A DNA stretch of 64,000 bases from a candidate division Kazan bacterium RIFCSPHIGHO2_01_FULL_44_14 (GCA_001771185.1 METB01000001.1:310848-374847); one strand, 5' to 3'; positions 4,098-31,846 are shown, numbered from the stretch's first letter. The notes: a model not told the origin generated them from the letters alone. Program-made: numbers and translations.

Positions 4098-4388
4098 TTA
4101 AAATCCCATCAAAAACATCTTCTCGCCTTTGGCAAACCTTAATGCAGGCGAGGTTTCGAGAGCAGTATTACGGAAGTTTTCCGGACTATTTAAAATTGTT
4201 TGAGCGTAGTCGGTCGGGGAAATGACTGGAACGGGGGCTTGAACAACCACCGACGCCTCGGTTTTTTGTAACTGTCCATTAATCTCTTGACTAAACCACA
4301 CCACACTAGCTAATAAAATATAGCCGAGCACCAGTATCCCAAACATGCCGAGAGTTAAAAATCCAAAATGACGGCGAGAATGTTTCAT
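4098..4388 (-). CDS. Small membrane-anchored protein, translationally coupled (TAATG) to the upstream giant gene.
   Basis: There is an N-terminal TM helix (FGFLTLGMFGILVLGYILLASVVWF). Its start codon overlaps the stop of the 1485-aa ORF. Confidence 0.5.
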   Translation of the reverse strand: MKHSRRHFGFLTLGMFGILVLGYILLASVVWFSQEINGQLQKTEASVVVQAPVPVISPTDYAQTILNSPENFRNTALETSPALRFAKGEKMFLMGF

Positions 4389-7300
4389 TAGATTTTATTC
4401 AGTCCTTCTTTAACCATGTCCGACAAAGAGTTAATAAAATACTCCTGGTCATCAAAATAGAGCGATTTTTGAATATTGACACCTGGGACATTACCTGGGT
4501 AGGAATAATTTTTGCTGATTGCAAATGACACAAATCGGTCTGTCCGTCCACCAAGATAAACGACATTAAATTCAACTTTGGCATCATCGGCTGTTCCCGA
4601 CCAAACTAGGTCGAAATAGGATCGATTGTAAATATTATCAGTACCACCACTAGTCGCGGAAGTAACTTTTCCGTTTTGGCTAATTCGAACGCTGGTTGGA
4701 TTTAAATTCAGACCAAGTTGAACCGGAGGTAATTTTGGCCAACCCAATTTGGCCGACCGCTTGGCAGATTCAGTCGCTAAACTTAATGTCACATGTAATG
4801 ACTTGGCCGAACTGGTCGGCATCCGAGTTTGGCTAAACACCAAACTGCCGCTACCATATAAATTAGTCCCTTCGGCAGCATAACCACTTGAAAGCTGCTC
4901 GGAAGTTTTTGGTCGAGTGTCAGCAGAGGTTTGGTCGGCGTAATACAGCGAAATTTGTGAGGCCGGACTAACCGCACTTCCAGTTGCGCCGTTGATACTG
5001 ATTGACTCGAATCGATTAGGCCGTCCGCCAAGATAGACCACGGCATATTTTGCGCTGCCGACTACTAGCGGAAGATTGTGTTGCTGACTATATGTCCCGT
5101 CTGGATTTTGTTGGAAAATCAGCAAACCAGGGACAGCATATTGACCATTAGTGCCTCCAGTTACCAGCGGGGTTGCGTCACTAGGTAAGCCGTACTTGGG
5201 GACAATTACCTTTAGATCATTAATAATCTTAGTAATTTTTGGTTTATAGATGGTTTCATATTCATCGGCTGACACATATATATACAAGTTTTGTTTCTTT
5301 ACTGGCCCACTCCAAGGGTCTGCGGGGTCAGACTGTGTGCGCTCGATTCGCGAAGACCAAACCGAGAAGGTGGTTGGTGGATTTATCACGAGAGCAGGGT
5401 TAACTATTACTGAACTATTTGGATATGTCTCTGCCTCACGCAAAGTAATTGGTTTGATAAATGCCTGTCCACTACTGTCCACTACTTTAGCATCGATATA
5501 CACCGGCGTACCGTCAGTTGGAATGGAGTTAGCACTAGCACTAATCAGAATCTTATTGCCATAAGAGTCGGCTTTAACTGAATTAAGCGGTGCAATTTTG
5601 TCAGATAAAATTTCATTATTGGCACCGGGCTGTTGACCACTTGGCGTGGCTGGCTGACCGATCCCAGCAGATGGCGGAGTATAATCATTTCCGCTAATAC
5701 AAGCCATCTTATCGCCCCGTTTTACATCAGTGCTTTTGGTAAATTTCCAAGCGTCATAAAGTGAATCGAAATATGGGATTAATATATTGGCAGTATCGCC
5801 AGAGAATTCATCAATGTAGTCGTTGGCTTCTTGTTGGTTGATTTTGGATGCCGCCATCGTATCTAAAAACCCTTGCATAAAGGCCGAAGCGCCGAAGAAT
5901 GCTCCCCAAACACCAGTAAAAAGTGGTAAACCAAGAAAAACTGCCGGATTGGATATCATTGCCTGAATCACCGCCAATGAAGATCCACCCGCGATATCAG
6001 CATCAAGATCAATTGGCAGACCGTCTGGGCCAGTAGGTGCGCCGACCCAGATGCTAGGATCGGTTGCACCATATAATTTCCCGCGTCCACCCAAGAACAA
6101 GATACCGTCCTCCAATCTAGTCGCAGTGGCATAGACCGGAACCGGTTGATCACTGAGCGCCGGGACTTCACAATAACCATTCTGACTAAAATATTGATCA
6201 GTTTTCCCAGACAGTTGATTATATCTAGCCGCATAGGGGTTCAGGAGCCAATCCGGTAGGGGATTACCATTATGATCTACCTTGATTGTGGCAACTTTTA
6301 CTCCCGCTTTTTCTTCTTTAAAAATACCGGCCTTTCTGGCAGTGGCTGTCCATTGGAAAATAGACAGTGGCTCCCATGTATTTTCATCTAAGTCATAAAC
6401 GAACATCCCGTTATTTGGGCTAGTCAAAATATACTGGTTTTTCTCCCAGCGCGTACTGGTTGTAAGCGTACTCTGAAATGGCGTAGCGGCGGCGCTATAA
6501 GCATCTAACAATGTATTCGCATAAGAAAACAATCCAATTCGCGTCAACCGATCCCACAATGATAACCCCTTTTTAGTGGCCACGTCCTGTGTTTCTTGGT
6601 CAGACAAAGTTTTGTCTAGCTTATTTTCAAGCGTTTCCTTGAAGTCATCATGAAGTGGCCCAACTACAGCTGGCGTGTCCACTTTTTCCATTTGTCCAGT
6701 CACTACGTTATAAATATCAAACGGAGCGATATTATCATCTCGCCATTCCGAAACTATCTTCCTATCAATATTAGAGATGGATAACCATTCCAAAATAGTC
6801 GCTGGTCGGCCAATAATCGCTCCAATATCAGCATTTGATAAATGCTCCTCTTGTTTGAGATGCTGAATAAAGAAAAACCAATCAAGCTCATCAACCCTAG
6901 AGTAGAACTCTCCGCCAACCAAATAAACTTTTTGAGGTTGATTTTTGTTGTCATATTGAATCAACGGCACCATCCCTTGACCTCGAGGGTAGCGTAGTTC
7001 TCCTTGAGCAGTAAAGGTATCCTTAAATCCATCATAGATAACTACACTAGTCAGCTGTCCGCCAGTAAGCAAGACCTGACCATCGGTTAAAGGGACGGCC
7101 ACCAAATTAGCATCGGTACTGATTGGCTCTGACAATGGCTCAAACCGACCAGTTGTAAGATTAAGAATTTCTCCATCTTGTAAATAATAACTTTGTGATA
7201 AATAGCCAGGGCTACCACGCCAATCAGCAATCGCCTTAATAATGCGTTCTTTGATTGAACCGAGAAAGTTAGTTGGTTGGATTTTTCCCGAATCCGACCT

Positions 7301-8845
7301 CTCGTCGGTACTAAAATTAGGAAGATAGATCTGTTGCTTGTCATATGTAACACTAAATAGCCAACCGCCAAGTTTAACCCCAGAATAAGCCCCCGGCGGT
7401 CTAGTAAATGAGAATCGAGCATAGTTATACAACTCTCGAAGTTTGGTCAAGACATCGGGTGAAGTAGAAGTATTAGAATTCCCGTTGGTTGGACGTACTG
7501 AAGTCGGCGCGTCTTGACTGAGCGGCGCGCCAAAGGTATTCCCGTCAATATTAATAACGTTTGTGTCGGGAGTGCTTGAGGTAGTTCCGCCACGGCGTTT
7601 CACGAATTCCATCGTCCGTACCGTGCGATTGCCCCAAGAAATTTGGACATCAATGCCGATAGCATTGCGAAACTCGAAATCCTCATCTCCGGCTATCCCA
7701 ATGTAATAGGTGTAACTAAATGGATAACTCGGATAGAGAGTAGCTTCAACTTGATATGTCCGCCCTAAAATATCACGCTGTTCAACGTTTGACAAATCCT
7801 GTTCTACGAAAGTCCCGCTGGTCAGCCGCAAAAATCGTCCACCCCCCTGGATAGTCAACGTCATGTGAGCACGAGCCGGAGGCGCTAACCCTTCCACTTC
7901 TGGAGTAGAGACCTTTACTCGCAAAGCAGCTCTCTCACCAACTCCAATTGTTCGCGGAGATACACTTGTTTCCACTTCGATAATCCCATCGCCGGTGGTT
8001 TTTTGTTGAAGGAAGTTGTAAGAAGGAGCTGCGCCAGAAAAATGTTGAGTCATTGTGCTATCAGGCTGTTCAGGATCATGACTCCAAAACGATTCTGTTT
8101 CGCCACCTAAAATTAGAACCTTGTCAGTCCCTGGAACTAAAACTGCTTGATGTCCCTTCCTGCCCGTGAACATATTGGCCAGATATCCAGATCTAATATC
8201 GTCGCCATCATAAACTCCGGTATTTTTAAAATAATCTTTCAACCAAACAAACTTGCGTTCTTTGACCATGAATACTTCGCCTGTATAAGTATTCTCATGG
8301 AGCAACCCTAAGCCCCATACTGCCTTAAACGGTATCGGGCTATCTGTCACTATTTCACCACCCAAAAGTAAAACATTCCCATCCGGCAGAAGTGTGGCGG
8401 TGTGAAATGCTCGCGGTAGGCGCATATTATCAGTTGGCGTAACAAACTCGTCTTCAGGAGTGTAGATGAACGCGTGAGAAGTAGCCCTACCTTTAGATTC
8501 TATCCCGCCAGCAATTAATACCCGACCATCTCGCAGAGTAGTGGCAGTATGCCCGTATTTTTTGTGTGTTCCCAAATAATCTTGCAACTCGCCAGCTTCA
8601 TGGGGGACAGCTGCTTCTCCGGTAAGAGCTTGCTGTGACTTCTCAGATAGAGTAACTTGACCTTCACTATAAACTAAAAATCTGCCAGGATAATCATCCC
8701 CGCGCCAACCGGCCCCGACTCGTTTAAGTGAATAATTGGTGCTAAATTCCCCGACCGTATCGGCCAACGCCGGCAACGGCGAACTACCACAGAGGACTGC
8801 GATGGTTATAAGCCAGAGAATTATTTTTTGTGTTTGTTTTTGCAT
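4388..8845 (-). CDS. Giant secreted protein (1485 aa) with Kelch/beta-propeller-like repeats.
   Basis: It has a signal peptide (MQKQTQKIILWLITIAVLCGSSPLPALA). It contains repeated Kelch-like motifs: GHTATTLRDGRVLIAGG, FHTATLLPDGNVLLLGG, GHQAVLVPGTDKVLILGG, VPLTDGQVLLTGG and TRLEDGILFLGG. It is one long uninterrupted ORF. Confidence 0.65.
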   Translation of the reverse strand: MQKQTQKIILWLITIAVLCGSSPLPALADTVGEFSTNYSLKRVGAGWRGDDYPGRFLVYSEGQVTLSEKSQQALTGEAAVPHEAGELQDYLGTHKKYGHTATTLRDGRVLIAGGIESKGRATSHAFIYTPEDEFVTPTDNMRLPRAFHTATLLPDGNVLLLGGEIVTDSPIPFKAVWGLGLLHENTYTGEVFMVKERKFVWLKDYFKNTGVYDGDDIRSGYLANMFTGRKGHQAVLVPGTDKVLILGGETESFWSHDPEQPDSTMTQHFSGAAPSYNFLQQKTTGDGIIEVETSVSPRTIGVGERAALRVKVSTPEVEGLAPPARAHMTLTIQGGGRFLRLTSGTFVEQDLSNVEQRDILGRTYQVEATLYPSYPFSYTYYIGIAGDEDFEFRNAIGIDVQISWGNRTVRTMEFVKRRGGTTSSTPDTNVINIDGNTFGAPLSQDAPTSVRPTNGNSNTSTSPDVLTKLRELYNYARFSFTRPPGAYSGVKLGGWLFSVTYDKQQIYLPNFSTDERSDSGKIQPTNFLGSIKERIIKAIADWRGSPGYLSQSYYLQDGEILNLTTGRFEPLSEPISTDANLVAVPLTDGQVLLTGGQLTSVVIYDGFKDTFTAQGELRYPRGQGMVPLIQYDNKNQPQKVYLVGGEFYSRVDELDWFFFIQHLKQEEHLSNADIGAIIGRPATILEWLSISNIDRKIVSEWRDDNIAPFDIYNVVTGQMEKVDTPAVVGPLHDDFKETLENKLDKTLSDQETQDVATKKGLSLWDRLTRIGLFSYANTLLDAYSAAATPFQSTLTTSTRWEKNQYILTSPNNGMFVYDLDENTWEPLSIFQWTATARKAGIFKEEKAGVKVATIKVDHNGNPLPDWLLNPYAARYNQLSGKTDQYFSQNGYCEVPALSDQPVPVYATATRLEDGILFLGGRGKLYGATDPSIWVGAPTGPDGLPIDLDADIAGGSSLAVIQAMISNPAVFLGLPLFTGVWGAFFGASAFMQGFLDTMAASKINQQEANDYIDEFSGDTANILIPYFDSLYDAWKFTKSTDVKRGDKMACISGNDYTPPSAGIGQPATPSGQQPGANNEILSDKIAPLNSVKADSYGNKILISASANSIPTDGTPVYIDAKVVDSSGQAFIKPITLREAETYPNSSVIVNPALVINPPTTFSVWSSRIERTQSDPADPWSGPVKKQNLYIYVSADEYETIYKPKITKIINDLKVIVPKYGLPSDATPLVTGGTNGQYAVPGLLIFQQNPDGTYSQQHNLPLVVGSAKYAVVYLGGRPNRFESISINGATGSAVSPASQISLYYADQTSADTRPKTSEQLSSGYAAEGTNLYGSGSLVFSQTRMPTSSAKSLHVTLSLATESAKRSAKLGWPKLPPVQLGLNLNPTSVRISQNGKVTSATSGGTDNIYNRSYFDLVWSGTADDAKVEFNVVYLGGRTDRFVSFAISKNYSYPGNVPGVNIQKSLYFDDQEYFINSLSDMVKEGLNKI

Positions 8846-8859
8846 GTTGGAAAAAGTGT

Positions 8860-11800
8860 TTAAGGTGCGCCGGCTGGTTTATCGACACCCCATCCCCAGT
8901 TCCAGTTTAGGAACGAAAAGTCGAGCGAATCAACTTTAGTATCACCATTAAAATCGCCGAAAACCGGAGTGCGTGCAAACTCTAGATTAAAGACCGAGAA
9001 ATCGAGAGAGTCGATACGGTTATCGTGGGTTAGATTAATGTCACCAATCTTAGCAATTAACATTGTCAGATTGATTGGACTAACTGTAGAACCACCAAAA
9101 GTGGTGGCTACCGCCAAATGATTGGTGGCCTTCACCCAGACATCATAAATTTTATTAGTCGAAACCGAGATTTGTGGCAAACCAACAATTTGATTACTGC
9201 TATTAATTTTGAACCAGTTATTAATTAATGGGGTAGTGTCATTTTTGCCAATCACAATTACCAGCACCTTATTTTGAGTGAGGTAATCATAACGGTTGCC
9301 TTCGACTGGCGCGATGATATTCAGGGTCTTAGTTGTACCGCTTACTGGCTTCCTCTCAATCACCTCTCCATTAAGAGTGCCTGCGGTCGAAATTGTACCT
9401 ATACCCGCAATGAGCGCACTAGCATCAACCCTGGTCTGACCCTCGCCGTCGGCAACTTGAGTCCAATAGGTAGCAGTATCAGTTCCATTGGAACCAATTA
9501 GAAGTGTGGTTTTATTCAAGTTACCAAGACCAGTTAATATGAGTGTGACTATTTGGTTAGTACGAGGGGTATTGTCAGCGTTTTTTAAAGTTACCGTAAT
9601 CGTGGACCAATGTTGGCTACTGTTCAAATCAATGGTGGTCGGGTTGGCCTCAACTTTAAAAATCAAGTTATGAACAACCACTATTTTGACAATTGTAACA
9701 GTAGCCGAAATTGGCGCACCGCTTCGGCTGGTGCTACTGGCAGTAATCCGAACTTCAACGGCAAGATTATCGACTGTGTAGGTTGAGGTGGCAACACCAT
9801 TAGGGTCACTAGTTGTGTCTGTTGCCGGAGCAAGACCACCAGTAGTCAGATTCTTGGCAAAGTTTACTGTTACGTTGGGACGCCGAGTAATCACACCAGT
9901 AGTATTGTTTATCCAACCAACTACAGCAGTAAGATCGGAGGTCTGCTGGTTGTCTGGTACCAGTTGGGTTGGGTTGGCCTGGAGACCAATAAAGTCACTG
10001 TCGGCAACTTGAACCAGAAAATCGTGATCGCCCAACTTGGTGGCTATTTCCTCACTGTCACCCCCCACAATGGTATGGACGCTTACATCCCACCAACCCG
10101 GTGTGGCGTTGGCGGAAATAACAACCGTGGCTCGTAGGTTCTGGGTGCCATCAGGATTATTAGTTACACTCACAGTTGTGGCTGTCACCCCTTGGTTGTC
10201 GCCGATATCTGTATTTTCGTCATTCGGCTCGAAAATGACAGAAGAATGATTGGTCAACCAGTTGGTATTTTGGCCGACTAAGTCCACGATATATTGTTTG
10301 TTTCGCTCACCTCGGTCGGAAGTGATCGACGTAATATAGGCCAAATTGCTAGCCCCTTGAGGCAAAACTTCAAAATAACGAGGAGTGTAATCGGGAGTGG
10401 CTAACCATTCCAAAGCTTGGCCGTCTTGGACCACGCTAACTCGCCACATCCCCAAAGTCGCACTGGTGCCAATATCAATCGTAAACCGCAAATCATTACC
10501 AACCTTTTGAATATTTTCAACGGTAACCCCATTGTCCCTGAGCAGATACTTTTCGATCGAAACTCCATCACCCAAGAATTTATTACCAGGATTAATCGTG
10601 GCATATGCTATGGTCTCTTCAAAACCGGTTGGCTGGACTGCCGTAAACTCAGTCTGGGCTTGCCCATTGGCATCAGTATAGCGCGGATTTAAGACGGCAC
10701 TACCATTATCGGTAATGAAATTCACTAATTGGTCTGGAACTGGACTATCGTCACTCAAACTTAACCTAGCAGTCATTCTGATTGGGACAACCGGGGGCTG
10801 CAAATTGACGGTAACGGCCTCGGATGTGAGATCGAGATTATAAAACCGCAAAGTTGGGTCATTTTCAACAACCGCTATCTTGACCGGAGCAATGCCTTGG
10901 GCGCTGGCTTCGATATAAGTTACTCCAGCCGAGGTACCCGTCTGGTAACTCGTTGTAACCAAACCGTCTTTAGCAATCACCAAACTGTCCCGCAATTGTC
11001 CGTTGGTCATATGCCCTTGAACGACATCGCGAATTAATCGGAATGAAACCGGCAAATTGTCGGCTGGATTTCCGTTAGAATCAACTAGGTTCAAAACAAT
11101 CGGTTGAGGAGTTTGCCCATCGGCCTTGAGAGTTGTAACCCACGGTAATTTGTATGTAAATTGACCTTGAGTCGGTTCAAATTGAACTTCAGCATTGGCG
11201 TTGAGTGCAACACCAGCTCCCTGTAAGGTAACTTGCAAATCAGTGGAGCCCTGGACTCCGCTGACCGGGATAACATTAGTGAGATAGGGGATAAAGTGAA
11301 CTGTGACGGAATCGAGAGACAGCCCCGACCCCGCTCCCACTAACAGGTTAGCATCTCCGGATTGAGTTGATTTGATTGCCACCTTTGCGGTACCCTGGTC
11401 GTCAGATTGAATTGTAATTGAGGTGGCGGTTTGTTCGACAATTGGATAACCGGCTACCGCCTCAAAAATATCTTCGCGGGGAGCTTCACCCAATTTGACC
11501 GGCCCCTTAAAAATAGTGACTGGCAGATTCAACATTGGGGTGTCCTCGGCGCTAAACACCTGGGTCGAAATAATCCCACTATCTTGGCCGTCAGCATAAA
11601 CTGTATCATCTGGTAACACTATCGTTTCGGCTTTGCTTGGTTGATTAAATGCCCCGACAAATAGCGGACCGATATATTCAGCGGCTTTGAAAGTGGTAGG
11701 AGGAGTGCTAGAAACTTTACCATCATTAGCAACGGTATTAACCCACTTACCTGAACCGCCGGTCACATAGAGGGAAATAATTGTGCCAATTTTTTCGCCT

Positions 11801-14226
11801 TGCGAATTAAACTTATCAATTTTTACTCCAGCGCTAGCAGTAAACAACAAATTGGTGGACTGTGGCGAAGTGAACCGGAAATCGGCTCCAGACACAAATG
11901 GCCACATCCAACCTTGAATTGGTTCGTCTGGTTTGGGAGGATAAGCATCCTGATTTAAAACTCGAGTATAAGCCGTCGGCAAATCCTGCCAGTGAGACGG
12001 ATAGTGAAACTTCCCAAGTTGTTGGGTCGGCAATTTATATCCGCCAGCTACAATCGACTTTCCTTCGCTACCGTCTGGCAAACTGGCACCAACCGAATAA
12101 GAACCAAACCGGTAGTTGTCATTCAGCAACGCGCCGTCCGAACGCGCGTCGCTGATACTGGCCAAGCCGCCCGGTTCATCCAGTTGCCAACCAGCCGCCG
12201 ACACGGTAAATTTCTGTGACAAATTAGCGCTCAATGGAATTGGATTAGCGACATTGTACGGAGTCGCGTTATAAAGTCCACCGGACAAATAAATTTCAGT
12301 ATCAGAAGTGGAGGTAGCAGTCGGCATGAACAAACCACCACGAGCACCTTGAGAAGATTTTAACGGAATCGATTCAGCCCCAATCAACGAGGAACTAACC
12401 GTTGCCCAAGAGGTACCTCCAGAATGGGGTAGCAGTTTTAATGTCGAGTGGCCAACAAAATCATAACTGGGAGTCCCACTAACGGGATTATCGGCAGGAT
12501 GGCTAACGCCATCATCCAATACCCAAAACGGAGAGAGGGAAGTATTGGTCTCCGGACCAACACTACCAAAACTGGCTCCACCAAATATATAAATATGATA
12601 GCCAGGTGCACTGTCAGGCCCTTTGATTAAGACGATTTGGTGCCCATAGCGACCTTGGGCTACGGGCACGATATTCGTCACTGTATGAGCGGGAGCGGGT
12701 AGTATTATTTCTTTAAAATCAATAAATACTCGCAGTTGACCGATTTTAATCACTCGATTTGAAAGCCACTGATTAGCGTAGAGATAGGGATTTGTAGTCA
12801 GTTCACCAAACTCCCATGAGCTTGGGTTACTTGAAACGGTAGAAAAATTGAGTCGGATATGGGTCTCGACTGTGGTAACAAAAGCCCCACTTTTAACTTG
12901 GTCGAAATAAAGTTGAGAATAATCTGGACCAGCCGGAATGCTTCCGACTTGAGCCAGAACCGGTTTAGTTACCGACGACCAGCGTTGGACAAGTTTTTGA
13001 ACCCAACCGATAGTAGTGACCCCTTCAGGAGCAGTAGTGGTAGTACTACCCTCGGGTGTGACAGTGGTGTTAGTGTCTGGCGTAACAATAGTAGTGTCTG
13101 GTGAAACAATGGCTCCAGGATAACTGTCTCGGTCGTGCGGGTCATATCCCAGAAAAATCTCAATCCAGTCGGCCACCCCATCGCCGTCGCTATCAAGCGG
13201 ATCGTTTTTAATTTTGCCTAAGTATTCTGGCAAGCCGTAAAGATTGTTGGTCGAGCCAGTTGGATAATTGGTAATTGTACTGCCACTAGTTACCGGATCG
13301 GTCATGGTTAGCCCTCCGCCAGCAAAAAGATATAACGGATGATAGCCAACAATTGGTTTAGTCCCTAGGTTGTTGTCACCCCAAAAATCTGGGTCAAAAT
13401 TTGGGTCCATCAAATTACTCGGTCCAACCGGCGATAGAATCGGTTGACCATTAGCCAGACCACCAGGTGCCTGTTGCCACATATTGCCAAACACACCACC
13501 AGTGATGTGGATATACCCCCAATCAGCTGGATAAATCCCACCACCTTGCGGTCTCAAACTCGGACTATCTGTCACTAATACTTCTGGTAAATAATGGACA
13601 TCAGTGATTGAAGCCACCACTTCCCAATTATTTGGACTATGCAAATTAAGCCGTTCGATTGTGGAGTAAACCCCGCTTTCCACGCCCGAAACTGGTAATC
13701 CATTTTGATCAAGTATAATCGGGGCGATATGCATATCACCAACGATGGCATATAAGTAGTCCTGGTAACCATCCTTGTCGGTGTCCACCGCTACCAACCG
13801 ACCGGCGGCGCGAGGGGACTTCATTGAAGCAGAATACTGCCAATTACCACTGGCTGGTTGGCCGGATTCATCTAATTCCAAATATTCAACACTCGACAAG
13901 GCATTCCAAGTCCCACTAGTTTCGTTTAGTCCACCTACCACCCACAACCGTCTTTGGATAGTAGCCCCTGTCTTGACCTGGGCGTACACCATTGAATGAT
14001 GTTGCCGTGTAGTCGACATGGCTGGAACATTTTTCCAATTCAAATCATCCTGATAACCAGTCACTTCGGCCTTGGAGCCAAACAGTCGGAGGAGAAAATC
14101 CAGTTGAGAGAAAAATAGTACTGCAACGATGACGGCAGATACGCTAATGGCGCCGATAGCAAATCGGCGACGATTACCGGGGACGCCCAACCAGGTTGTG
14201 AACCGTTGCCACGGATATAGAGTCAT
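8860..14226 (-). CDS. Giant surface protein (1788 aa) with an N-terminal signal-anchor, Kelch-like repeats, a thrombospondin-type-3-like Ca-binding motif, Ig-like repeats and a C-terminal dockerin-like pair.
   Basis: The N-terminal TM is FAIGAISVSAVIVAVLFF. Kelch-like GG motifs are present. It carries DPLDSDGDGVADWIEIFLGYDPHDRD. The C-terminus has DINLTHDNRIDSLDFSVF and DFNGDTKVDSLDFSFL, which match dockerin-type Ca-binding repeats. Confidence 0.65.
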   Translation of the reverse strand: MTLYPWQRFTTWLGVPGNRRRFAIGAISVSAVIVAVLFFSQLDFLLRLFGSKAEVTGYQDDLNWKNVPAMSTTRQHHSMVYAQVKTGATIQRRLWVVGGLNETSGTWNALSSVEYLELDESGQPASGNWQYSASMKSPRAAGRLVAVDTDKDGYQDYLYAIVGDMHIAPIILDQNGLPVSGVESGVYSTIERLNLHSPNNWEVVASITDVHYLPEVLVTDSPSLRPQGGGIYPADWGYIHITGGVFGNMWQQAPGGLANGQPILSPVGPSNLMDPNFDPDFWGDNNLGTKPIVGYHPLYLFAGGGLTMTDPVTSGSTITNYPTGSTNNLYGLPEYLGKIKNDPLDSDGDGVADWIEIFLGYDPHDRDSYPGAIVSPDTTIVTPDTNTTVTPEGSTTTTAPEGVTTIGWVQKLVQRWSSVTKPVLAQVGSIPAGPDYSQLYFDQVKSGAFVTTVETHIRLNFSTVSSNPSSWEFGELTTNPYLYANQWLSNRVIKIGQLRVFIDFKEIILPAPAHTVTNIVPVAQGRYGHQIVLIKGPDSAPGYHIYIFGGASFGSVGPETNTSLSPFWVLDDGVSHPADNPVSGTPSYDFVGHSTLKLLPHSGGTSWATVSSSLIGAESIPLKSSQGARGGLFMPTATSTSDTEIYLSGGLYNATPYNVANPIPLSANLSQKFTVSAAGWQLDEPGGLASISDARSDGALLNDNYRFGSYSVGASLPDGSEGKSIVAGGYKLPTQQLGKFHYPSHWQDLPTAYTRVLNQDAYPPKPDEPIQGWMWPFVSGADFRFTSPQSTNLLFTASAGVKIDKFNSQGEKIGTIISLYVTGGSGKWVNTVANDGKVSSTPPTTFKAAEYIGPLFVGAFNQPSKAETIVLPDDTVYADGQDSGIISTQVFSAEDTPMLNLPVTIFKGPVKLGEAPREDIFEAVAGYPIVEQTATSITIQSDDQGTAKVAIKSTQSGDANLLVGAGSGLSLDSVTVHFIPYLTNVIPVSGVQGSTDLQVTLQGAGVALNANAEVQFEPTQGQFTYKLPWVTTLKADGQTPQPIVLNLVDSNGNPADNLPVSFRLIRDVVQGHMTNGQLRDSLVIAKDGLVTTSYQTGTSAGVTYIEASAQGIAPVKIAVVENDPTLRFYNLDLTSEAVTVNLQPPVVPIRMTARLSLSDDSPVPDQLVNFITDNGSAVLNPRYTDANGQAQTEFTAVQPTGFEETIAYATINPGNKFLGDGVSIEKYLLRDNGVTVENIQKVGNDLRFTIDIGTSATLGMWRVSVVQDGQALEWLATPDYTPRYFEVLPQGASNLAYITSITSDRGERNKQYIVDLVGQNTNWLTNHSSVIFEPNDENTDIGDNQGVTATTVSVTNNPDGTQNLRATVVISANATPGWWDVSVHTIVGGDSEEIATKLGDHDFLVQVADSDFIGLQANPTQLVPDNQQTSDLTAVVGWINNTTGVITRRPNVTVNFAKNLTTGGLAPATDTTSDPNGVATSTYTVDNLAVEVRITASSTSRSGAPISATVTIVKIVVVHNLIFKVEANPTTIDLNSSQHWSTITVTLKNADNTPRTNQIVTLILTGLGNLNKTTLLIGSNGTDTATYWTQVADGEGQTRVDASALIAGIGTISTAGTLNGEVIERKPVSGTTKTLNIIAPVEGNRYDYLTQNKVLVIVIGKNDTTPLINNWFKINSSNQIVGLPQISVSTNKIYDVWVKATNHLAVATTFGGSTVSPINLTMLIAKIGDINLTHDNRIDSLDFSVFNLEFARTPVFGDFNGDTKVDSLDFSFLNWNWGWGVDKPAGAP

Positions 14227-14316
14227 TTTGTTTTTCTTTACTCCTATGAGAAACCTCCGAACGATTATTTCATTATACTATAATTGTCCCAAAAAGTCAA
14301 GCCCTAAGTCAAGGAC

Positions 14317-15354
14317 CTATTCTATCCCCAGGTCTTCTAAGGATGAACCCCCAGTTAAGTCACCGGAACCATCCTCGTCTCGGCCGGCCAGATAATAGCC
14401 GGTAATGGCTTCCTGGATGTAATCTTCGTCCGCAACGGTAAAGGCCAACGGAGTATCAAACTGGGCGGTTAATCCGCCGGTGTTTTCGGGTGAAGGGTCG
14501 GCAATCGCTACGGTAATCGCTTCAGCTGAACGAGCAATCGGAATTGCCGTGAACTTAGTGGCGATTTCGTACGGCATCGTTCTCACCACGGCTGGATCGA
14601 TTTCATAACGAGACAAATCAAGCGATGGAACATGATACTGGCTACCCAAAGCTCGCACCAAATCTTCACGAGAAATAAGTTGTTTGTTCAACAAAACTCG
14701 TCCCAACCGCTGACCAGTTTGGTGCTGTTCCTGGAGAGCCAAATTCAAATCGCCCGGAGCGATGATATTTTGATTGACCAAAATTTCACCAAGCCGTTGG
14801 ACTGGTCGAGCTGAATGGGGTCCGGATTCTTCAGCTAATGGAACTCGACTGCGTTCGCTATAACTGGTAATTAAATCGGCGATATCTCTAGCACCGGGAA
14901 TCGACCGCAATTCAAAGAAGCCCTCCTTGCCAGCGGACTGAACCGTGATGTTGCCGAACCGAAAAATTGAAGATAACACTCCCTGCATTGTTACCCTAAC
15001 ATCTTGAACTTGGTCCATATTCATTTGCGATACTCGACGATTGAACAAACTAATCAATTGGATATCGATTAGCCGCTCTGGCAAAATAATCCAAACATCC
15101 ATATACCAGAAAATCCACTGCATCATAAAAAAATTGACAACGAACAGCACATACAGTCCACCAAATAGCCAAAGACCAATCTCAACCTCCGATTGGTCTG
15201 CGAATCCCAATGCGTTGATGGCGATTAAAAATATCAGCAAGGGCACCAGCATCAACACCGACCAGCCCAATGGGACTAATAAGTCCACACTATGACGGCG
15301 AAGGGTGAGCGGGGGGGCGGCGTGTGATTGATGGTTGGGGATTTGTTCAATCAT
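14317..15354 (-). CDS. Membrane protein with an N-terminal bPH (YdbS/YdbT-like) domain fused to a GspE_N/MshEN-like domain with two tandem 24-residue motifs; candidate c-di-GMP receptor.
   Basis: Two TM helices flank a PH-like segment. It then carries RLGEILVNQNIIAPGDLNLALQEQ and RLGRVLLNKQLISREDLVRALGSQ. Both fit the MshEN pattern RLGxx[LIV][LIV]xxG[LIV][LIV]xxxx[LIV]xxx[LIV]xxQ, and the second matches exactly apart from the glycine-10 position (Q there). The start overlaps the stop of the upstream 64-aa ORF (ATGA). Confidence 0.55.
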   Translation of the reverse strand: MIEQIPNHQSHAAPPLTLRRHSVDLLVPLGWSVLMLVPLLIFLIAINALGFADQSEVEIGLWLFGGLYVLFVVNFFMMQWIFWYMDVWIILPERLIDIQLISLFNRRVSQMNMDQVQDVRVTMQGVLSSIFRFGNITVQSAGKEGFFELRSIPGARDIADLITSYSERSRVPLAEESGPHSARPVQRLGEILVNQNIIAPGDLNLALQEQHQTGQRLGRVLLNKQLISREDLVRALGSQYHVPSLDLSRYEIDPAVVRTMPYEIATKFTAIPIARSAEAITVAIADPSPENTGGLTAQFDTPLAFTVADEDYIQEAITGYYLAGRDEDGSGDLTGGSSLEDLGIE

Positions 15355-15545
15355 AGTTGAGAAGCAATAATTGCCGCCGAGATTGAACCAATAATAACGC
15401 CCAGTGCGACCAGCAAATAAACACTCATTGCGAGATAGGCGTTATCATTCGGCAACCGAAATCGGAAAATATGAAAAATATTGATGGCGGCATAACCCGC
15501 CCCAAATAACAGAAGCACCGCATAGATAATTATCATGGTTGTCAT
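15351..15545 (-). CDS. Small two-TM membrane protein (64 aa).
   Basis: It has two hydrophobic helices and is translationally coupled on both sides (ATGA overlaps with ruvB and the downstream gene). Confidence 0.45.
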
Positions 15546-16558
15546 GAAACAAAAAGTTTTGGTTTATAACTGGCCAATCTAAGATGGTCATAGGTCTTGT
15601 CGGTGGCTATCCGTCCCTGGGCAGTTCTCTGCAAAAAACCCTCCTGAATTAAATATGGTTCATAGACATCTTCAATGGTCTGACGCTCCTCGGAGATAGC
15701 GGCGGCCAACGAACTTAACCCGGCCGGACCACCCTTAAATTGAGTCACCAGCGTCCGAAGGATTTTGCGGTCAACTTCATCAAGACCTAATTTGTCGATT
15801 GTGAGCAAATTTAAGGTGTCTTGAACCACAACCGAATTAATCACCCCGCTATTTTTAACTAGGGCATAATCACGCACCCGTTTCAAAATCCGATTGGCCG
15901 TCCGAGGGGTACGGCGAGAGGACCGAGCGATTAGTTCGGCTTCTGGCTTGGGAAGGTCAACTTGTAAAATTCGGGCTGAACGCCGAAGAATTTTTTCAAT
16001 ATCCTCAACTTCATAAAAATCCAACCGATAAGTAGCGCCGAACCGATCTCGCAGGGGAGAGGAAAGTAAACCAACCCGAGTAGTGGCACCAATCAGTGTA
16101 AATTTCGGCAAATCCAATTTCAGCGAACGAGCCGAGGGACCTTTGCCAACAATAATGTCTAGACAATAGTCCTCCATCGCCGAATACAACACTTCCTCTA
16201 CTGGTCGACCGAGCCGATGGATTTCATCAATAAATAAAATATCGTTGTCTTGGAGATTGGTAAGAATGGCGGCCACATCACCAGCTCGCTCAATTGCCGG
16301 ACCAGAGGTGGCTCTAAGTCCCACTCCCATTTCGTGGGCGATGATATGAGCTAGAGTGGTCTTACCTAACCCCGGCGGACCGAATAGCAAGACATGGTCT
16401 AACGGCTCACCTCGTTGTTTCGCGGCTTGAATAGCAATCGTTAAACCGGCCTTGGCATTGTTTTGGCCAACATAGCCGGCAAAATCGTGCGGACGCAGGT
16501 GGGTGTCTAGTTCGTTATCTTCCCCTTCCGCCCTTGGATCAATAATTCTTGAGTTCAT
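15542..16558 (-). CDS. ruvB: Holliday junction branch migration helicase RuvB.
   Basis: It has Walker A ([18 protein letters not shown]), Walker B ([10 protein letters not shown]), and the RuvB C-terminal winged helix. Confidence 0.9.
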
Positions 16559-17865: not shown

Positions 17866-20094
17866 CTATTGTACCGTAATCGTCCAACCAAACATCGGAC
17901 CAAACCAAGTCACATGTTCGGCTACAAACCGAAATTCTTCTTGATACGAACCGGGCTGACTGGGTGCTCGGACCATGAAGCTTAGAGTCAACTGTCCTCC
18001 AGGCGGAACTTTGACTCCAGCATTAATAATCCGATTGTTACTGATCCACGATAAGTATCGGAAGGGGCTGACTCGATCAAGCGGAGTAGCCGTTCCAATT
18101 CGAACTTCGCCCAACCGCTGGGTCCCAGCTCCTTGGGCCTGCCAAGTGGTTTGACCAAGATTAACCACCGTCACCGACAGTTGAGCGGTATCACCAGGAC
18201 GAAGCGTAACCGAACCGCTTTGATTAACAATAGTCAATTGATAATCGACTGGGTTACTGCTAACCGAGTTGAGATCGGTTTGGGTGGTCAGCCCATTAAC
18301 CGGCTCAACCGAAATGTCCCAATAAATTCCTAGATCATTTAACCAACTAGCATATTCAACTACCGGCCGAAAATATTCCCGATGGTGACCGACCTGGCTC
18401 GCTTTGATCGGAAAAGTGAACCGAACGGTCCCTCCGGGCAGAACTACATTGGGAGCCATGTAAGTAACTCGATTGGCTGACAGCCAGTCATCAGTTGTAA
18501 ATGAACTGATTCGATCCAATGGCCGATCAGTACCCAATTTGATGATGCCGTGTCCGTCCAAACTGGCTTGCGGGTCGCTGATCCACATCACATTGCCAGT
18601 ATTTTTTACTTCCACCCATAAATCTTGAGTCGCTCCCAAGACCAACCTGGGATAAGGACTCTGCCCAACCCATTTCATGGCATAAGTCGTTTTTGACGGA
18701 GCAGTAAATTGGATCGGAGCTTTGACGGTTAACGATGAATGAGTGGTATTGTTGGTGAAAGTTAATTCTCTGGATCCGGGGACAGTTGATGCAACTCGAA
18801 AAGAAATTTGACCCAATAGATTTGATTGGCCGAGTGACATTGTGCCAGTAGCCGATACGGGTTGTCCATTAATAAGAACATTAGAACCGTTGGCTCGGAC
18901 TAAGATTTCTTGGTTGGGCTTGGCATGCCCTACATCATCCCGCACCGTGACGGTGACAGTAGCAAAGTTCACTCCATCTGCCACTACCACACCGTTAGCG
19001 ATCGAAACATCTCCGCGTTCAGTTACCGAGTTAACCGCTAATAATTTGGGGATATTTAAAATACCAGCCCCGAAGGTGGTTTGACTACCGCTATTGATCA
19101 CATCACTACTGCCTTTGAGTGCACTTTCTAACACACTGGGGGATAGTCCGGAAAAGCGACCCAACATCAAGGCGGCAGCAGCGGTGACTTGAGCAGTAGC
19201 GAACGAAGTTCCGTCACCAATCATATAATCGCCGGTGGGGCCATTCACCAAACCAGCCATGGTGATGTCAGTCCCTGGCGCTGACAGATCGATACCTTCA
19301 CCCACACTTGCAAATGGCGGATGTTGGTCGTGAGCATCGACCGCAGTGACGGCGATGACATTAGGATAGGCGGCCGGGAAATAAACGGGTTTACCGCTCC
19401 GATTACCGACTGCGGCGATCATCGGAACTCCGCGATTGACCGAATAATTAACTGCGCTCGATAAAATTGCGCTGTCGCTAGCCGAACCAAAACTCATATT
19501 AATAATCGAAGCGCCATTGTCGACAGCATACCGAATGGCTTGGGCGATATCCTGAAAATCGCCGCCGCCATTATCATCAAGCGCCTTTAATATCATCAAC
19601 CTGGCGTTCCAATCAATCCCAGCAATTCCGGTACTATTATTGGTCTTGGCAGCAATGATACTAGCGATCCCGGTACCATGACCATTAGCATCAATGATGT
19701 TGTTGGTATCATTGAAAAAATTGTAGCCGTAGTAATCATCAGCATAGCCGTTGCCGTCATCGTCCTTGTTATTATTAGGAGTTTCACGTTGATTCACCCA
19801 CAACTTCCCAGCCAATTCAGGGTGGCTCAAATCAATTCCGGTATCGATCACTGCGATCACCAAATTGGTACCTTGGGTAATGTCCCAGGCGGCAGGAGCC
19901 CCAATTCGTTGAAGATACCACTGCTTGGAATAAAGTGGGTCGTTGGGCAACGACTGGATTGTCAACTGATGCTCGCTGACTGATTGGGTAATCCATCCGG
20001 CAATATGGATCGGCAAATCGGATTGGGCTAATACTGGCGAGACCCAACTTAGCGACAAAATAGTACTAAAGACAACTACGAGGAATTTACGCAT
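17866..20094 (-). CDS. Secreted subtilisin-like serine protease (S8) with tandem C-terminal Ig-like domains.
   Basis: It has a signal peptide and the catalytic triad contexts VIDTGIDLSHPEL (Asp), HGTGIASIIAA (His) and GTSFATAQVTAAAAL (Ser). Two ~110-aa C-terminal repeats (..LGTDRPLDRISSFTTDDWLSANRV.. and ..GTATPLDRVSPFRYLSWISNNRI..) resemble the N-terminus of the L,D-transpeptidase at 56363. Confidence 0.85.
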   Translation of the reverse strand: MRKFLVVVFSTILSLSWVSPVLAQSDLPIHIAGWITQSVSEHQLTIQSLPNDPLYSKQWYLQRIGAPAAWDITQGTNLVIAVIDTGIDLSHPELAGKLWVNQRETPNNNKDDDGNGYADDYYGYNFFNDTNNIIDANGHGTGIASIIAAKTNNSTGIAGIDWNARLMILKALDDNGGGDFQDIAQAIRYAVDNGASIINMSFGSASDSAILSSAVNYSVNRGVPMIAAVGNRSGKPVYFPAAYPNVIAVTAVDAHDQHPPFASVGEGIDLSAPGTDITMAGLVNGPTGDYMIGDGTSFATAQVTAAAALMLGRFSGLSPSVLESALKGSSDVINSGSQTTFGAGILNIPKLLAVNSVTERGDVSIANGVVVADGVNFATVTVTVRDDVGHAKPNQEILVRANGSNVLINGQPVSATGTMSLGQSNLLGQISFRVASTVPGSRELTFTNNTTHSSLTVKAPIQFTAPSKTTYAMKWVGQSPYPRLVLGATQDLWVEVKNTGNVMWISDPQASLDGHGIIKLGTDRPLDRISSFTTDDWLSANRVTYMAPNVVLPGGTVRFTFPIKASQVGHHREYFRPVVEYASWLNDLGIYWDISVEPVNGLTTQTDLNSVSSNPVDYQLTIVNQSGSVTLRPGDTAQLSVTVVNLGQTTWQAQGAGTQRLGEVRIGTATPLDRVSPFRYLSWISNNRIINAGVKVPPGGQLTLSFMVRAPSQPGSYQEEFRFVAEHVTWFGPMFGWTITVQ

Positions 20095-20379: not shown

Positions 20380-20628
20380 ATGCACTACACCTATGTTCTA
20401 CAATCAAAACTAGACGGACATCTCTATGTGGGATGTACTGCTAACTTGATGGCTCGTATAGAGACGCACAACTCTGGTGCGGTATCGTCTACCCGTTCGC
20501 GTAGACCCTTAGAACTGGTGTATTATGAGGCATGTTTGTCTGAAAAGCTGGCACATACTCGGGAACAACAATTAAAAACAGGGTTTGGTCGAGCTTATTT
20601 AAAGAGACGTCTTGGGTCCGTAGCTTAG
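20380..20628 (+). CDS. GIY-YIG domain protein (UPF0213/YhbQ-like small nuclease).
   Basis: It reads YTYVLQSKLDGHLYVGCTANLMARIETHN...RPLELVYYE...REQQLK, a GIY-YIG core of the right length. Its last codons and stop lie inside the tRNA-Lys gene. Confidence 0.7.
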   Translation: MHYTYVLQSKLDGHLYVGCTANLMARIETHNSGAVSSTRSRRPLELVYYEACLSEKLAHTREQQLKTGFGRAYLKRRLGSVA

Positions 20629-20687
20629 TGGTAAAGCAGTTGCCTTTTAAGCAATTGATGCAGGTCCGATTCCTGCCGGACCCACCA
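20614..20687 (+). tRNA. tRNA-Lys (anticodon TTT).
   Basis: The cloverleaf was read by eye: acceptor GGGTCCG/CGGACCC, D-arm GCTTAGTGGTAAAGC, anticodon loop CTTTTAA, T-arm CAGGTCCGATTCCTG, and an encoded CCA. A terminator hairpin follows. Confidence 0.8.
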
Positions 20688-30181: not shown

Positions 30182-30256
30182 TGGTAGCCCCAACGGGAGT
30201 CGGACCCGTCTTTTCAGATTGAAAATCTGACGTCCTAACCGATAGACGATGGGGCC
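30182..30256 (-). tRNA. tRNA-Glu (anticodon TTC).
   Basis: The cloverleaf was read on the reverse complement: D-arm GTCTATCGGTTAGGAC, anticodon stem TCAGA/TCTGA, loop TTTTCAA, and an encoded CCA. Confidence 0.7.
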
Positions 30257-30378
30257 AAGAACTACTGCGTAGTTAATATCCAATCACCAAATTTCAAATA
30301 ACAAAGGGGAGAGAAACAGATTCTAGGTTTTGTTTGATAATTGACTATTGGATATTGGTTATTACAGCGAAGCTGTTC

Positions 30379-30453
30379 TGGTGGGCGCAGAAGGATTCGG
30401 ACCTTCGGCCAATCGCTTAAGAGGCGACTGCTCTACCGCTGAGCTATGCGCCC
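30379..30453 (-). tRNA. tRNA-Lys (anticodon CTT).
   Basis: On the reverse complement: GGGCGCATAGCTCAGCGGTAGAGCAGTCGCCTCTTAAGCGAT..GAAGGTCCGAATCCTTCTGCGCCCACCA. Confidence 0.8.
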
Positions 30454-30521
30454 ACAAAAATGCTTCTTGCATTTTAATACTCAATAATCAAATTACAATA
30501 ATCAAATAATTTGTCTTTAGT

Positions 30522-30645
30522 GGGAACCCCGAAATGGTCTAGTTCCGATGAATAGAGGAACGAACATTTTGGGGAAGAGGAGCAACGCCGAGTCCTAATA
30601 GGTCAGTGAGTTTACCGAACTGACCGTTAAGACGAGGCCGTTGCG
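30522..30645. ncRNA. Copy 2 of the ~125-nt stem-loop element (between tRNA-Lys-CTT and tRNA-Arg-CCG).
   Basis: It is nearly identical to 20183-20307 and ends 6 nt from the tRNA-Arg(CCG) 3' end. Confidence 0.45.
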
Positions 30646-30651
30646 ACGAAG

Positions 30652-30727
30652 TGGCGCGCCCGAAGGGAGTCGAACCCCCGACCTTTGGAACCGGAATCCA
30701 ACGCTCTATCCACTGAGCTACGGGCGC
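30652..30727 (-). tRNA. tRNA-Arg (anticodon CCG).
   Basis: On the reverse complement: GCGCCCGTAGCTCAGTGGATAGAGCGTTGGATTCCGGTTCCAAAGGTCGGGGGTTCGACTCCCTTCGGGCGCGCCA. Confidence 0.8.
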
Positions 30728-30749
30728 ATGTTATCTGGATTGTCTGCAG

Positions 30750-30826
30750 TGGGGTGGGCGATGGGATTTGAACCCACGGTCACTCGGACCACAACCGAGA
30801 GCTTTAACCACTAAGCTACGCCCACC
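30750..30826 (-). tRNA. tRNA-His (anticodon GTG) with an encoded G-1.
   Basis: On the reverse complement: g-GTGGGCGTAGCTTAGTGGTTAAAGCTCTCGGTTGTGGTCCGAG..TTCAAATCCCATCGCCCACCCCA. The extra 5' G pairs with the discriminator C. Confidence 0.8.
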
Positions 30827-30862
30827 CCACTGCAGACAACTGTTCAACAAATTATTAAAGAA

Positions 30863-30940
30863 GGGGACCCCGAAATGGTCTAATTTCGATGAATAGAGGA
30901 ATGAACATTTTGGGGAAAGGAAAAATGCTGAGCCCCAGTA
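30863..30940. ncRNA. Copy 3 (partial, diverged) of the stem-loop element.
   Basis: The first hairpin is retained with compensatory changes (GUUCC/GGAAC becomes AUUUC/GGAAU). The second half is diverged. Confidence 0.4.
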
Positions 30941-31016
30941 ACCGTTCTGCTGTACAGCAGAACGCGCGTCAGATGATGAATATCGGCCATAGACCTCGCG
31001 TTGCCTTGGCGAAGTG

Positions 31017-31092
31017 TGGCGGCCCCGGGAGGAATCGAACCCCCAACCTTATCGTTAGAACCGATCTGCTCTATCCGTTGAGCTACGGGGCC
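31017..31092 (-). tRNA. tRNA-Arg (anticodon TCT).
   Basis: On the reverse complement: GGCCCCGTAGCTCAACGGATAGAGCAGATCGGTTCTAACGATAAGGTTGGGGGTTCGATTCCTCCCGGGGCCGCCA. Confidence 0.75.
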
Positions 31093-31200
31093 ATCTGGTC
31101 AGACATCAGGCAAGGTACATCATAAATCTAGCATAAGCAATAACAAAAAGCTCCGCTTCCAAAATGCAGAGCTGAATCAATTGGGATAAATTAACTTAAT

Positions 31201-31596
31201 TTAGCAAAGAGGGGAATGGATTTGTTGACGCTTCAGAGCTGACTGGATTTCGCCCTTAGTCATGACAAAGAACTGAAAGAAACCTAATTGGGGAACAGTC
31301 AACCCTCGAAAAACTTTTTTTGATTCACGCTCTACCCGCGGTTCTTGCCAGTTGGGATAAATCTCATGCATCAGTTCATGAACAAGAGTAATCACCCGAT
31401 CGTTTATCCCAATCCGCCGATTAATAAAAATTTTTAACTCATCTGGCACAATATAGCCCTTGGCAGCTCTGTGTCTAGTGCCTCGTTTACCAGTCCCGCC
31501 ATTTTGAGGGACACTAGTTAAAATCACCTCATAACCAGAGTAGAGGAGGGTGTTCTTTAGTTTAAGGAACCAATTGTTTGTTTTTGTTTTTGCCAC
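31201..31596 (-). CDS. Hypothetical HExxH metallopeptidase-like protein.
   Basis: It has LVHELMHEIYPNW (HExxH plus a downstream E), is 131 aa, and sits between tRNA genes. Confidence 0.4.
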   Translation of the reverse strand: MAKTKTNNWFLKLKNTLLYSGYEVILTSVPQNGGTGKRGTRHRAAKGYIVPDELKIFINRRIGINDRVITLVHELMHEIYPNWQEPRVERESKKVFRGLTVPQLGFFQFFVMTKGEIQSALKRQQIHSPLC

Positions 31597-31846
31597 TGAT
31601 TTTCAATTGTCATCCCAACGCTTTTATAGCACTTCTAATAATTATAGCATAAAACTCCCTAACTGTCAAGTAGTAAAGAGTGGCTCCTGGACAATAAAAC
31701 TCTAATCAAAACAACAGATCAAACTGCTGTCTGTGATTTTGAGAGTGGCCCATGCTTCGCCCTGTGGGCTACCGCAGGGCAGTCTTCGCTTTCCATCTTA
31801 AAATCTTCCCTGGCGTAGCCAGGCGTAGCTTCAACGAAGCGAAGCC

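Follow-up and report, generated by a model that had tools for sequence, protein, structure and literature searches.

Is a membrane protein that resembles a second-messenger receptor, encoded directly ahead of two giant surface proteins, a switch for its neighbors, or do these genes belong to different units? The question is raised by a locus of the candidate division Kazan bacterium RIFCSPHIGHO2_01_FULL_44_14 (GCA_001771185.1, METB01000001.1:310848-374847), analyzed here within a stretch of 64,000 nucleotides (nt), hereafter the window. Six open reading frames (ORFs), all on the minus strand as an earlier note on this DNA had described, encode RuvB, a 64-amino-acid (aa) protein, a 345-aa membrane protein, two giant proteins (giant 1 and giant 2) and a 96-aa protein, at the coordinates given in Table 1. 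In that note they were read as a giant-adhesin module gated by a second messenger. From comparative analysis we favor another reading, to which we assign a probability of about 0.55, in which the region consists of two juxtaposed units: unit A is a ruvB cassette with an accessory MshEN domain that plausibly binds c-di-GMP (cyclic diguanosine monophosphate), and unit B comprises the giant genes under a promoter that appears to be their own.

Results

A profile search of a genome collection with the N-terminal module of the 345-aa protein, formed by two transmembrane (TM) helices and a bacterial PH (bPH) domain, yielded 80 species-level loci (L017-L096), labeled as Kazan, Falkow-, Buchanan-, Uhr- and Kuenenbacteria, Parcubacteria, and Patescibacteria group. 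RuvB was found in 73 of these loci, whereas in the other seven the sequence ahead of the match is shorter than 840 nt, and in 72 of the 73 testable loci it was encoded directly upstream of the bPH gene and on the same strand. Between both genes, 71 of the 72 loci presented a small two-TM ORF (median 84 aa; consensus N-x-YH-x-x-RFGF...IDW), the counterpart of the 64-aa protein, whose orthologues in Kazan loci share the motif IN-x-FH-x-x-RFRL. The third protein of the cassette has about 180-210 aa in most lineages, and neither a giant gene nor an MshEN domain was identified in cassette loci outside the Kazan-like clade in the 80-locus survey. The linkage of ruvB to a membrane pair, whose co-translation was previously regarded as odd, is instead a conserved and phylum-wide feature.

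The flanks of this trio are variable. Ten sampled loci carried ten different genes upstream of ruvB (e.g., YfhO, GAF-HD-GYP, RNase J, exonuclease, SPFH protein, and SpoU), by which a fixed upstream gene, such as ruvA, was ruled out, and queA was located downstream of the bPH gene in 7 of 10 sampled loci. A bPH-only homologue with 33% identity (L014/L015), placed in a wholly different neighborhood, still follows RuvB and an 85-aa two-TM ORF, with an ATGA overlap. In the window, ruvA belongs to a yebC-ruvC-ruvA operon (48722-50576, minus strand) with ATGA overlaps, 32 kb from ruvB, which thus stands apart from the genes that usually accompany it. The classical gene order in Firmicutes is ruvA-ruvB-queA; queA also comes after ruvB in many Patescibacteria loci, but with two membrane-protein genes inserted, and the ruvA of the window is elsewhere. 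The retention of the ruvB/two-TM/bPH trio goes far beyond what compaction could account for, and no published description of the trio was found.

Additional observations concern the neighbors of the cassette and genes for recombination and competence. In L041, RmuC follows the trio. A 23S_rRNA_IVP member is encoded between ruvB and the small two-TM ORF in L012 (9384-9752), with the rest of the cassette undisturbed, and a protein of the same four-helix-bundle family is present in the window (59448-59810, minus strand). RuvX, a Holliday junction resolvase-like protein, shows TAATG-type coupling to a 538-aa protein (32402-34461, minus strand), the sole family signal of which is a weak, sub-threshold Baseplate_J match. 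ComEC is apparently split into a Competence and DUF4131 ORF (46068-47516, minus strand), followed by a metallo-beta-lactamase ORF (45197-46090), with an overlap of 23 nt.

The 345-aa protein carries a genuine MshEN domain of the c-di-GMP-receptor type. Hidden Markov model searches placed it above the curated cut-offs of both families suggested for it in the earlier note, MshEN (PF05157, 45.8 bits against 23.1, residues 240-324) and bPH_2 (PF03703, 28.6 bits against 22, residues 103-162), and the two TM helices, the PH-like segment and the two tandem 24-residue motifs were all present. These motifs are directly N-terminal to the Pfam MshEN match, where MshE holds its four-helix c-di-GMP-binding subdomain (PMC5013675). 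Residues 168-345, compared by phmmer with sequences of the PDB, matched PilF (1e-26), PilB (about 5e-22 to 6e-22; 5TSG, 6e-22), and MshE (5HTL, 3e-15).

An AlphaFold2 (AF2) model built with 33 relatives, with a mean predicted local distance difference test score (pLDDT) of 72, presented in order two TM helices (26-49 and 55-84; pLDDT >90), a PH-type sandwich, four short helices (188-194, 200-213, 217-223, and 229-239; pLDDT about 85), and an alpha/beta subdomain, with pLDDT of about 85-90 for both MshEN subdomains. The model has both parts of the MshEN fold (four-helix bundle and alpha/beta subdomain), and the bPH_2 region, a beta-sandwich with a C-terminal helix, agrees with a YdbS-like protein by its profile match, two N-terminal TM helices and one PH fold. 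Foldseek retrieved MshE in complex with c-di-GMP (5HTL) first and then PilF GSPII-B, these top matches (5HTL and 8PDK/8PFA) having a probability of 1.00, followed by the PilB(N)-PilZ complex 7LKO and the XpsE N-domain 2D28, as well as the bacterial PH domains 3DCX and 3HSA, with a root-mean-square deviation of about 3 Å. Since the outside loop has about 10 residues and RRH precedes TM1, the topology would be N-in/C-in, with both soluble domains predicted to be cytoplasmic.

Wang et al. (2016) described the MshEN pattern as two copies of RLGxx[LVI][LVI]xxG[LVI][LVI]xxxxLxxxLxxQ, 5 residues apart (PMC5013675). The fit to this pattern claimed in the earlier note holds for 10 of the 11 specified positions in each motif and for the 5-residue spacer; it fails at position 10. 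Regarding ligand contacts, of which each motif has six (R1, L2, G3, L17, L21, and Q24), all 12 are present. Among the 33 relatives (45-80% identity), L2, G3, L17, L21, and Q24 of motif 1, as well as G3, L17, and Q24 of motif 2, are invariant, so that purifying selection on the contact residues seems visible in the alignment. In the non-binders XpsE and PilF GSPII-A several contact residues are gone, the Gln included (PMC5013675, PMC12002112). The motifs of distant members with the same architecture are more canonical: P0101 follows the relaxed pattern in both motifs and P0098 in motif 2, its motif 1 having D at the turn. Binding of c-di-GMP by the 345-aa protein is plausible from these residues, at roughly even odds.

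The MshEN domain was present in nine of the 80 species-level bPH loci. Forms of about 200 aa, with two TM helices and bPH only, sit between a 66-aa ORF and giant 1, and further MshEN-less forms were identified in L016, L023, and L025, each with a giant 1 orthologue downstream. In a neighbor-joining (NJ) tree of the N-terminal module, with outgroups devoid of MshEN, the MshEN-less forms occupy three separate places nested among MshEN-bearing sequences, a pattern that suggests one gain and at least three losses of the domain, although the tree is rough and carries no support values. Within the genomic context examined, which covers two of the three tree groups (all but P0070-P0072), giant 1 is kept downstream in all four MshEN-less loci. 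Moreover, the variants P0099 and P0112 keep the MshEN_C subdomain only, without the 53-residue nucleotide-binding bundle. Since it was apparently shed several times, the MshEN domain would be an accessory and not a core part.

Proteins that combine bPH with MshEN are rare. When 1.84 billion representative proteins were searched exhaustively with a profile, 169 matched at E <=1e-30, and 12 of the matches listed cover both profile halves in one stretch, which amounts to about 12 clusters at 50% identity. Pfam searches on six of these 12 identified bPH_2 plus MshEN at E <1e-3 in five, with bPH_2 slightly short of the curated cut-off in two cases, and MshEN only in the other one. As for a donor of the domain, the closest PilB matches (613 aa) do not look to us like proteins of the candidate phyla radiation (CPR). 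In the domain-defining paper, MshEN fusions to ATPase, REC, HD-GYP, CheA/CheX, cyclase, kinase, and glycosyltransferase are listed, and no fusion to PH or DUF304 is found in its main text and supplement (Wang et al., 2016; PMC5013675).

As for unit B, the features of both giants are ordinary for bacterial surface proteins. Kelch repeats had been claimed for the two of them and were confirmed in giant 2 (Kelch_4, 58.4 bits against 21.6), whereas the best match of giant 1 stayed below the cut-off (Kelch_1, 18.5 bits against 20.1); its significant domain is Big_1 (47.9 bits against 34.9), in three stretches, and its TSP3-like motif is DSDGDGVADW. The dockerin pair said to end giant 1 was reduced to one marginal repeat (residues 1757-1773; Dockerin_1, 23.4 bits against 22.9), which is matched when the last 149 residues are scanned alone, the whole protein giving none. 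Orthologues of giant 1 are fast-evolving (24-39% identity), carry Big_1 and Invasin_D3, and come right after the bPH gene in every Kazan-like locus with available context, MshEN-less ones included. Those of giant 2 were identified only in L007, L013, L023, and the P0036 locus, being absent in L008 and L010-L012. Homologues of the 96-aa protein have 110-115 aa and the C-terminus FL[VM]GF, and follow the last giant even without giant 2 (L008 and L012). A prepilin reading of this protein (HFG/FLTLG) was rejected, with no Glu at +5 and no pilin family match.

The spacer before giant 1, previously given as about 90 nt, has exactly this length and contains a sigma-70-type promoter-like site. This site matches 11 of 12 positions. 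In a scan of 17 kb, whose total of sites was no higher than that of shuffled sequence, it shares the highest score and ranks first on the minus strand. CTTGAC[AT]-17-TATAAT scores at least 11/12 at the same place in 13 of 16 Kazan-like lineages, the promoter for the P0036 locus being read from the equivalent locus L023. Because a near-consensus promoter is located in the spacer and kept in these lineages, the giants probably form their own transcription unit with a predicted promoter.

Reading of the junction DNA confirmed the ATGA overlaps of ruvB with the 64-aa gene (gtttcATGAcaacc) and of the latter with the 345-aa gene (caactATGAttgaa), as well as the TAATG junction between giant 2 and the 96-aa gene (aaatcTAATGaaaca); giant 1 and giant 2 are separated by 14 nt. 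The 64-aa and 96-aa ORFs are genuine genes, both kept in relatives. The ATGA overlaps are not an oddity by themselves, since, of 38 same-strand junctions in the window, 7 have a 4-nt overlap and 19 overlap or leave a gap of no more than 3 nt, including clearly unrelated pairs (TatD/EamA, ComEC/YceG, and UvrD/DPBB), at a coding density of about 87%.

Table 1. Features of the Kazan locus, with positions counted from the first nucleotide of the window.
Feature	Position	Strand	Basis or remark
ruvB, 338 aa, first gene of the three-gene cassette	15542..16558	minus	RuvB_N 263.6 bits, AAA_lid_4, RuvB_C
64-aa protein, two TM helices, small partner	15351..15545	minus	Translation, orthologues
345-aa membrane protein: two TM helices, bPH_2, full MshEN	14317..15354	minus	Pfam, AF2 model, Foldseek
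Two TM helices, about residues 24-84, short acidic outside loop	15103..15285	minus	AF2 model
bPH_2 (YdbS-like) domain, about residues 87-170	14845..15096	minus	PF03703, model, Foldseek
MshEN_N subdomain: motifs 187-210 and 216-239, 5-residue spacer	14638..14796	minus	Model, alignment
MshEN_C subdomain, about residues 240-327	14374..14637	minus	PF05157, phmmer
Sigma-70-type promoter-like site, TTGACT-17-TATAAT	14272..14300	minus	In the 90-nt spacer before giant 1
Giant 1, 1788 aa	8860..14226	minus	Signal anchor, sub-threshold Kelch-like region, TSP3-like Ca motif, Big_1, one dockerin-like repeat
Giant 2, 1485 aa, variable member	4388..8845	minus	Sec signal peptide, Kelch beta-propeller repeats
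96-aa single-TM protein	4098..4388	minus	TAATG-coupled to giant 2
S8 subtilase with Big_1/Invasin_D3 and N_BRCA1_IG domains	17866-20094	minus	Heads the S8, UppP, Sm_multidrug_ex, ruvB block

The 345-aa protein is identical to a hypothetical protein of the Kazan bacterium, and its locus was found again on 16 metagenome contigs. The gene order from ruvB through the small ORF and the MshEN protein to the giant, for which conservation in related genomes had been in question, was kept in all relatives examined at 46-80% identity. Two outcomes named in the earlier note as refuting it, a lack of a significant MshEN match and a neighborhood without conservation, were thus not observed. In seven relatives (46-76% identity) the longer order is kept, with S8 protease, UppP, Sm_multidrug_ex, RuvB, small ORF, bPH/MshEN, and giant Big_1 protein; the block from S8 to ruvB is kept in all Kazan-like loci. 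The full metG-to-tsaDE stretch is syntenic within the Kazan clade, and for this reason the adjacency of the MshEN protein and the giant in this clade is not independent evidence.

Around this block, a lone tRNA-Lys (20614-20687, plus strand) lies just upstream of the S8 gene, and a cluster of six tRNAs (Glu, Lys, Arg, His, Arg, and Gly) was detected at 30182-31920 (minus strand). At 608-2533 the plus strand encodes a protein of 641 aa that contains three lamin-tail domains (LTD, 177 bits), and LTD proteins adjoin the tsaDE genes in L010-L012 too.

With respect to c-di-GMP in related organisms, the gene directly upstream of ruvB in L042 (2764-4509, plus strand), on a 922-kb contig of a Patescibacteria genome bin, encodes a protein with GAF and a true HD-GYP (HDIGK...HHERPDGKGYP), which is evidence for the existence of cyclic-dinucleotide turnover genes in Patescibacteria. 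Ultra-small groundwater genome bins have been reported to have diguanylate cyclase genes, in a general statement (PMC9938205). Literature searches on c-di-GMP, GGDEF, and diguanylate cyclase in CPR/Patescibacteria returned nothing on Kazan, and in these searches no characterized c-di-GMP receptor and no c-di-GMP signaling study was found for the CPR.

Two other genes of the window deserve mention. A DUF520/YajQ-family protein (181 bits) is encoded at 58902-59417 (minus strand). This family is believed to be widespread, so that its presence says little on c-di-GMP. In Xanthomonas and Lysobacter, family members have been described as c-di-GMP effectors (PMC4199771, PMC6988422). At 34585-35838 (minus strand), a 417-aa protein of the actin-like ATPase type matches FtsA and, weakly, PilM_2.

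Discussion

In the reading that we prefer, unit A (ruvB, 64-aa, and 345-aa genes) would be the Kazan-clade form of a translationally coupled, Patescibacteria-wide cassette of three genes, encoding RuvB, a small two-TM protein, and a YdbS-like protein in which two TM helices are combined with a bPH domain predicted to be cytoplasmic. In the Kazan-like clade, the third protein would have gained a complete C-terminal MshEN (GSPII) domain, a type of domain known as the N-terminal part of ATPases for type IV pili and type II secretion. This domain may act as a cytoplasmic regulatory input, most likely by binding c-di-GMP, and may modulate the membrane pair formed by the small TM protein and the bPH protein. 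Unit B (giant 1, giant 2, and the 96-aa gene) would be a fast-evolving, Kazan-specific surface-protein cassette, presumably transcribed from its own strong promoter. For YdbS/YdbT-like proteins the sole experimental precedent is the export of leaderless bacteriocins (PMC8657885), and any regulatory output in the Kazan protein is a conjecture on our part.

Several observations weigh against this reading, in particular against a c-di-GMP-binding MshEN domain. At position 10 of the pattern, the place of the turn Gly, motif 1 has N and motif 2 has Q, residues that fail even the relaxed [GAS] class of Wang et al. (PMC5013675), and among the 33 relatives this Gly is kept in 21 for motif 1 and 10 for motif 2, while R1 is present in 21 and 23, respectively. 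Furthermore, PilF GSPII-A with its consensus restored still does not bind (PMC12002112), and consequently sequence alone cannot settle c-di-GMP binding. No GGDEF, EAL, HD-GYP, PilZ, or secretion ATPase was detected among the 53 window ORFs scanned (six of the locus plus 47), and an Rfam scan of the window returned tRNAs only and no c-di-GMP riboswitch, in a window that covers roughly a tenth of the genome. In addition to the lack of support values in the NJ tree, many of the locus labels on which the breadth of the cassette depends are third-party and unverified, about 25 assemblies saying 'Gammaproteobacteria' or 'Saccharibacteria'. Finally, 9 of 11 loci in the clade with the giants have MshEN, as opposed to 0 of 69 elsewhere, a co-occurrence that may point to a functional link, although one evolutionary event would explain it.

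In comparison with known proteins, the Kazan MshEN shares with Vibrio cholerae MshE (5HTL) and with the GSPII domains of PilB and PilF the two-subdomain fold, the two 24-residue motifs with their 5-residue spacer, and the twelve contacts. Unlike in these proteins, it is not part of a secretion or pilus ATPase and is placed at the C-terminus of a membrane bPH protein; unlike in MshE, the turn Gly is replaced in both motifs. As described for it (PMC8669469), Escherichia coli NfrB is likewise an inner-membrane protein in which a cytoplasmic C-terminal MshEN serves as a local c-di-GMP input, but its output is a glycosyltransferase, whereas the Kazan protein has a bPH domain and no known partner diguanylate cyclase. 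The N-terminal 175 residues are of the same kind as in the YdbS/DdE family (PF03703), pairing two TM helices with a single bacterial PH domain, and are likewise encoded beside a second small membrane protein; the partner of YdbS is YdbT, with three bPH domains, and the role shown by experiment is export of leaderless bacteriocins (PMC8657885), while here the partner is a 64-99 aa two-TM protein without PH, and the conserved neighbor is ruvB.

Alternatively, MshEN could be a docking module that does not bind nucleotide and tethers the bPH/two-TM pair, and possibly RuvB, to a machine such as a type IV pilus or competence platform. This is unlikely in our judgment, in spite of a series of precedents: the interactions of GspE N1 with GspL and of PilF GSPII with PilM, the binding of PilZ by PilB-N in Xanthomonas, and the binding of PilM by PilF through its N-terminal half (PMC12002112). 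Among the fold matches of the 345-aa protein are 7LKO, a complex of PilB(N) with PilZ, and 2D28, the non-binding N-domain of XpsE, and P0099 and P0112 keep MshEN_C without the nucleotide site, which indicates that MshEN_C has a use of its own. The lack of conservation of the turn Gly and of the first Arg also fits docking, as does the presence of ComEC, RecA, RecX, RuvX, and RuvAC in the window, in line with a theme of DNA uptake and recombination. However, the Gln and Leu/Gly contacts, to which no structural role can readily be assigned, vary hardly or not at all among the 33 relatives and have been lost in the known non-binders (PMC5013675, PMC12002112), and the window showed no gene for a pilus ATPase or platform besides the FtsA/PilM-like ORF.

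The model drawn from the earlier note, that the membrane MshEN protein senses c-di-GMP and controls the secretion, retention, or release of the downstream giant adhesins, by a LapD/LapA-like logic with a different receptor, appears quite unlikely. In Pseudomonas, LapD/LapG/LapA comprises a degenerate GGDEF-EAL, HAMP, a periplasmic output domain, the LapG protease, a type I secretion system (T1SS), and an RTX adhesin. The sole idea that the Kazan locus has in common with it is that of a cyclic-dinucleotide receptor in the inner membrane whose gene lies close to that of a giant adhesin; a LapD/LapG analogue was rejected, since no GGDEF, EAL, LapG protease, T1SS, or RTX family was detected in the scanned window proteins and an outside loop of about 10 residues allows no external output domain. 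Unlike LapA, both giants have ordinary Sec-type N-termini and a predicted, conserved promoter of their own.

Favorable to such control are the MshEN domain itself, real and membrane-anchored, its confinement to the giant-bearing clade, the position of giant 1 directly downstream in every Kazan-like locus, the S8 subtilase with Ig domains conserved four genes upstream, and the export of leaderless bacteriocins by YdbS/YdbT-like proteins (PMC8657885). Nevertheless, the co-occurrence, seen in a single clade, may go back to one event, three groups lack MshEN and giant 1 stays in both of those whose context was examined, and the phylum-wide partner of the bPH protein is ruvB and not a surface protein. 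The proposed module was thus drawn from adjacency, and the separate promoter, the losses of MshEN and the linkage to ruvB speak against it.

We give a slim chance to the possibility that the small two-TM and bPH proteins are functional partners of RuvB in Patescibacteria, in a complex that in the Kazan clade would be either under c-di-GMP control or docked to a pilus or competence machine through MshEN. Under such an arrangement the membrane pair could hold the branch-migration motor at the membrane, coupling recombination to DNA uptake. The least probable explanation is that of no functional coupling at all, the gene order of a small genome then reflecting just compaction and inherited synteny, and MshEN having been added by neutral accretion, which the tight packing of the window, unrelated pairs included, and the syntenic metG-tsaDE block would allow, but which is at odds with a trio kept in 71-72 of 72-73 species amid wholly different flanks and with the apparent purifying selection on the MshEN contact residues.

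Conclusion

In brief, the preferred reading of two adjoining units leaves the adhesin story unsupported, the giant genes forming what seems to be a separately promoted, fast-evolving cassette that is merely next door. A membrane protein with an intact-looking MshEN site offers a concrete and cheap binding test. If the less likely partnership with RuvB were true, it would provide the first cyclic-dinucleotide receptor described in the CPR and a new, membrane-linked use of RuvB. The main result is that ruvB, though detached from ruvA, is fixed beside two small membrane-protein genes across many Patescibacteria lineages, an unexplained and testable tie of a recombination motor to the membrane in organisms that are thought to depend on DNA uptake.

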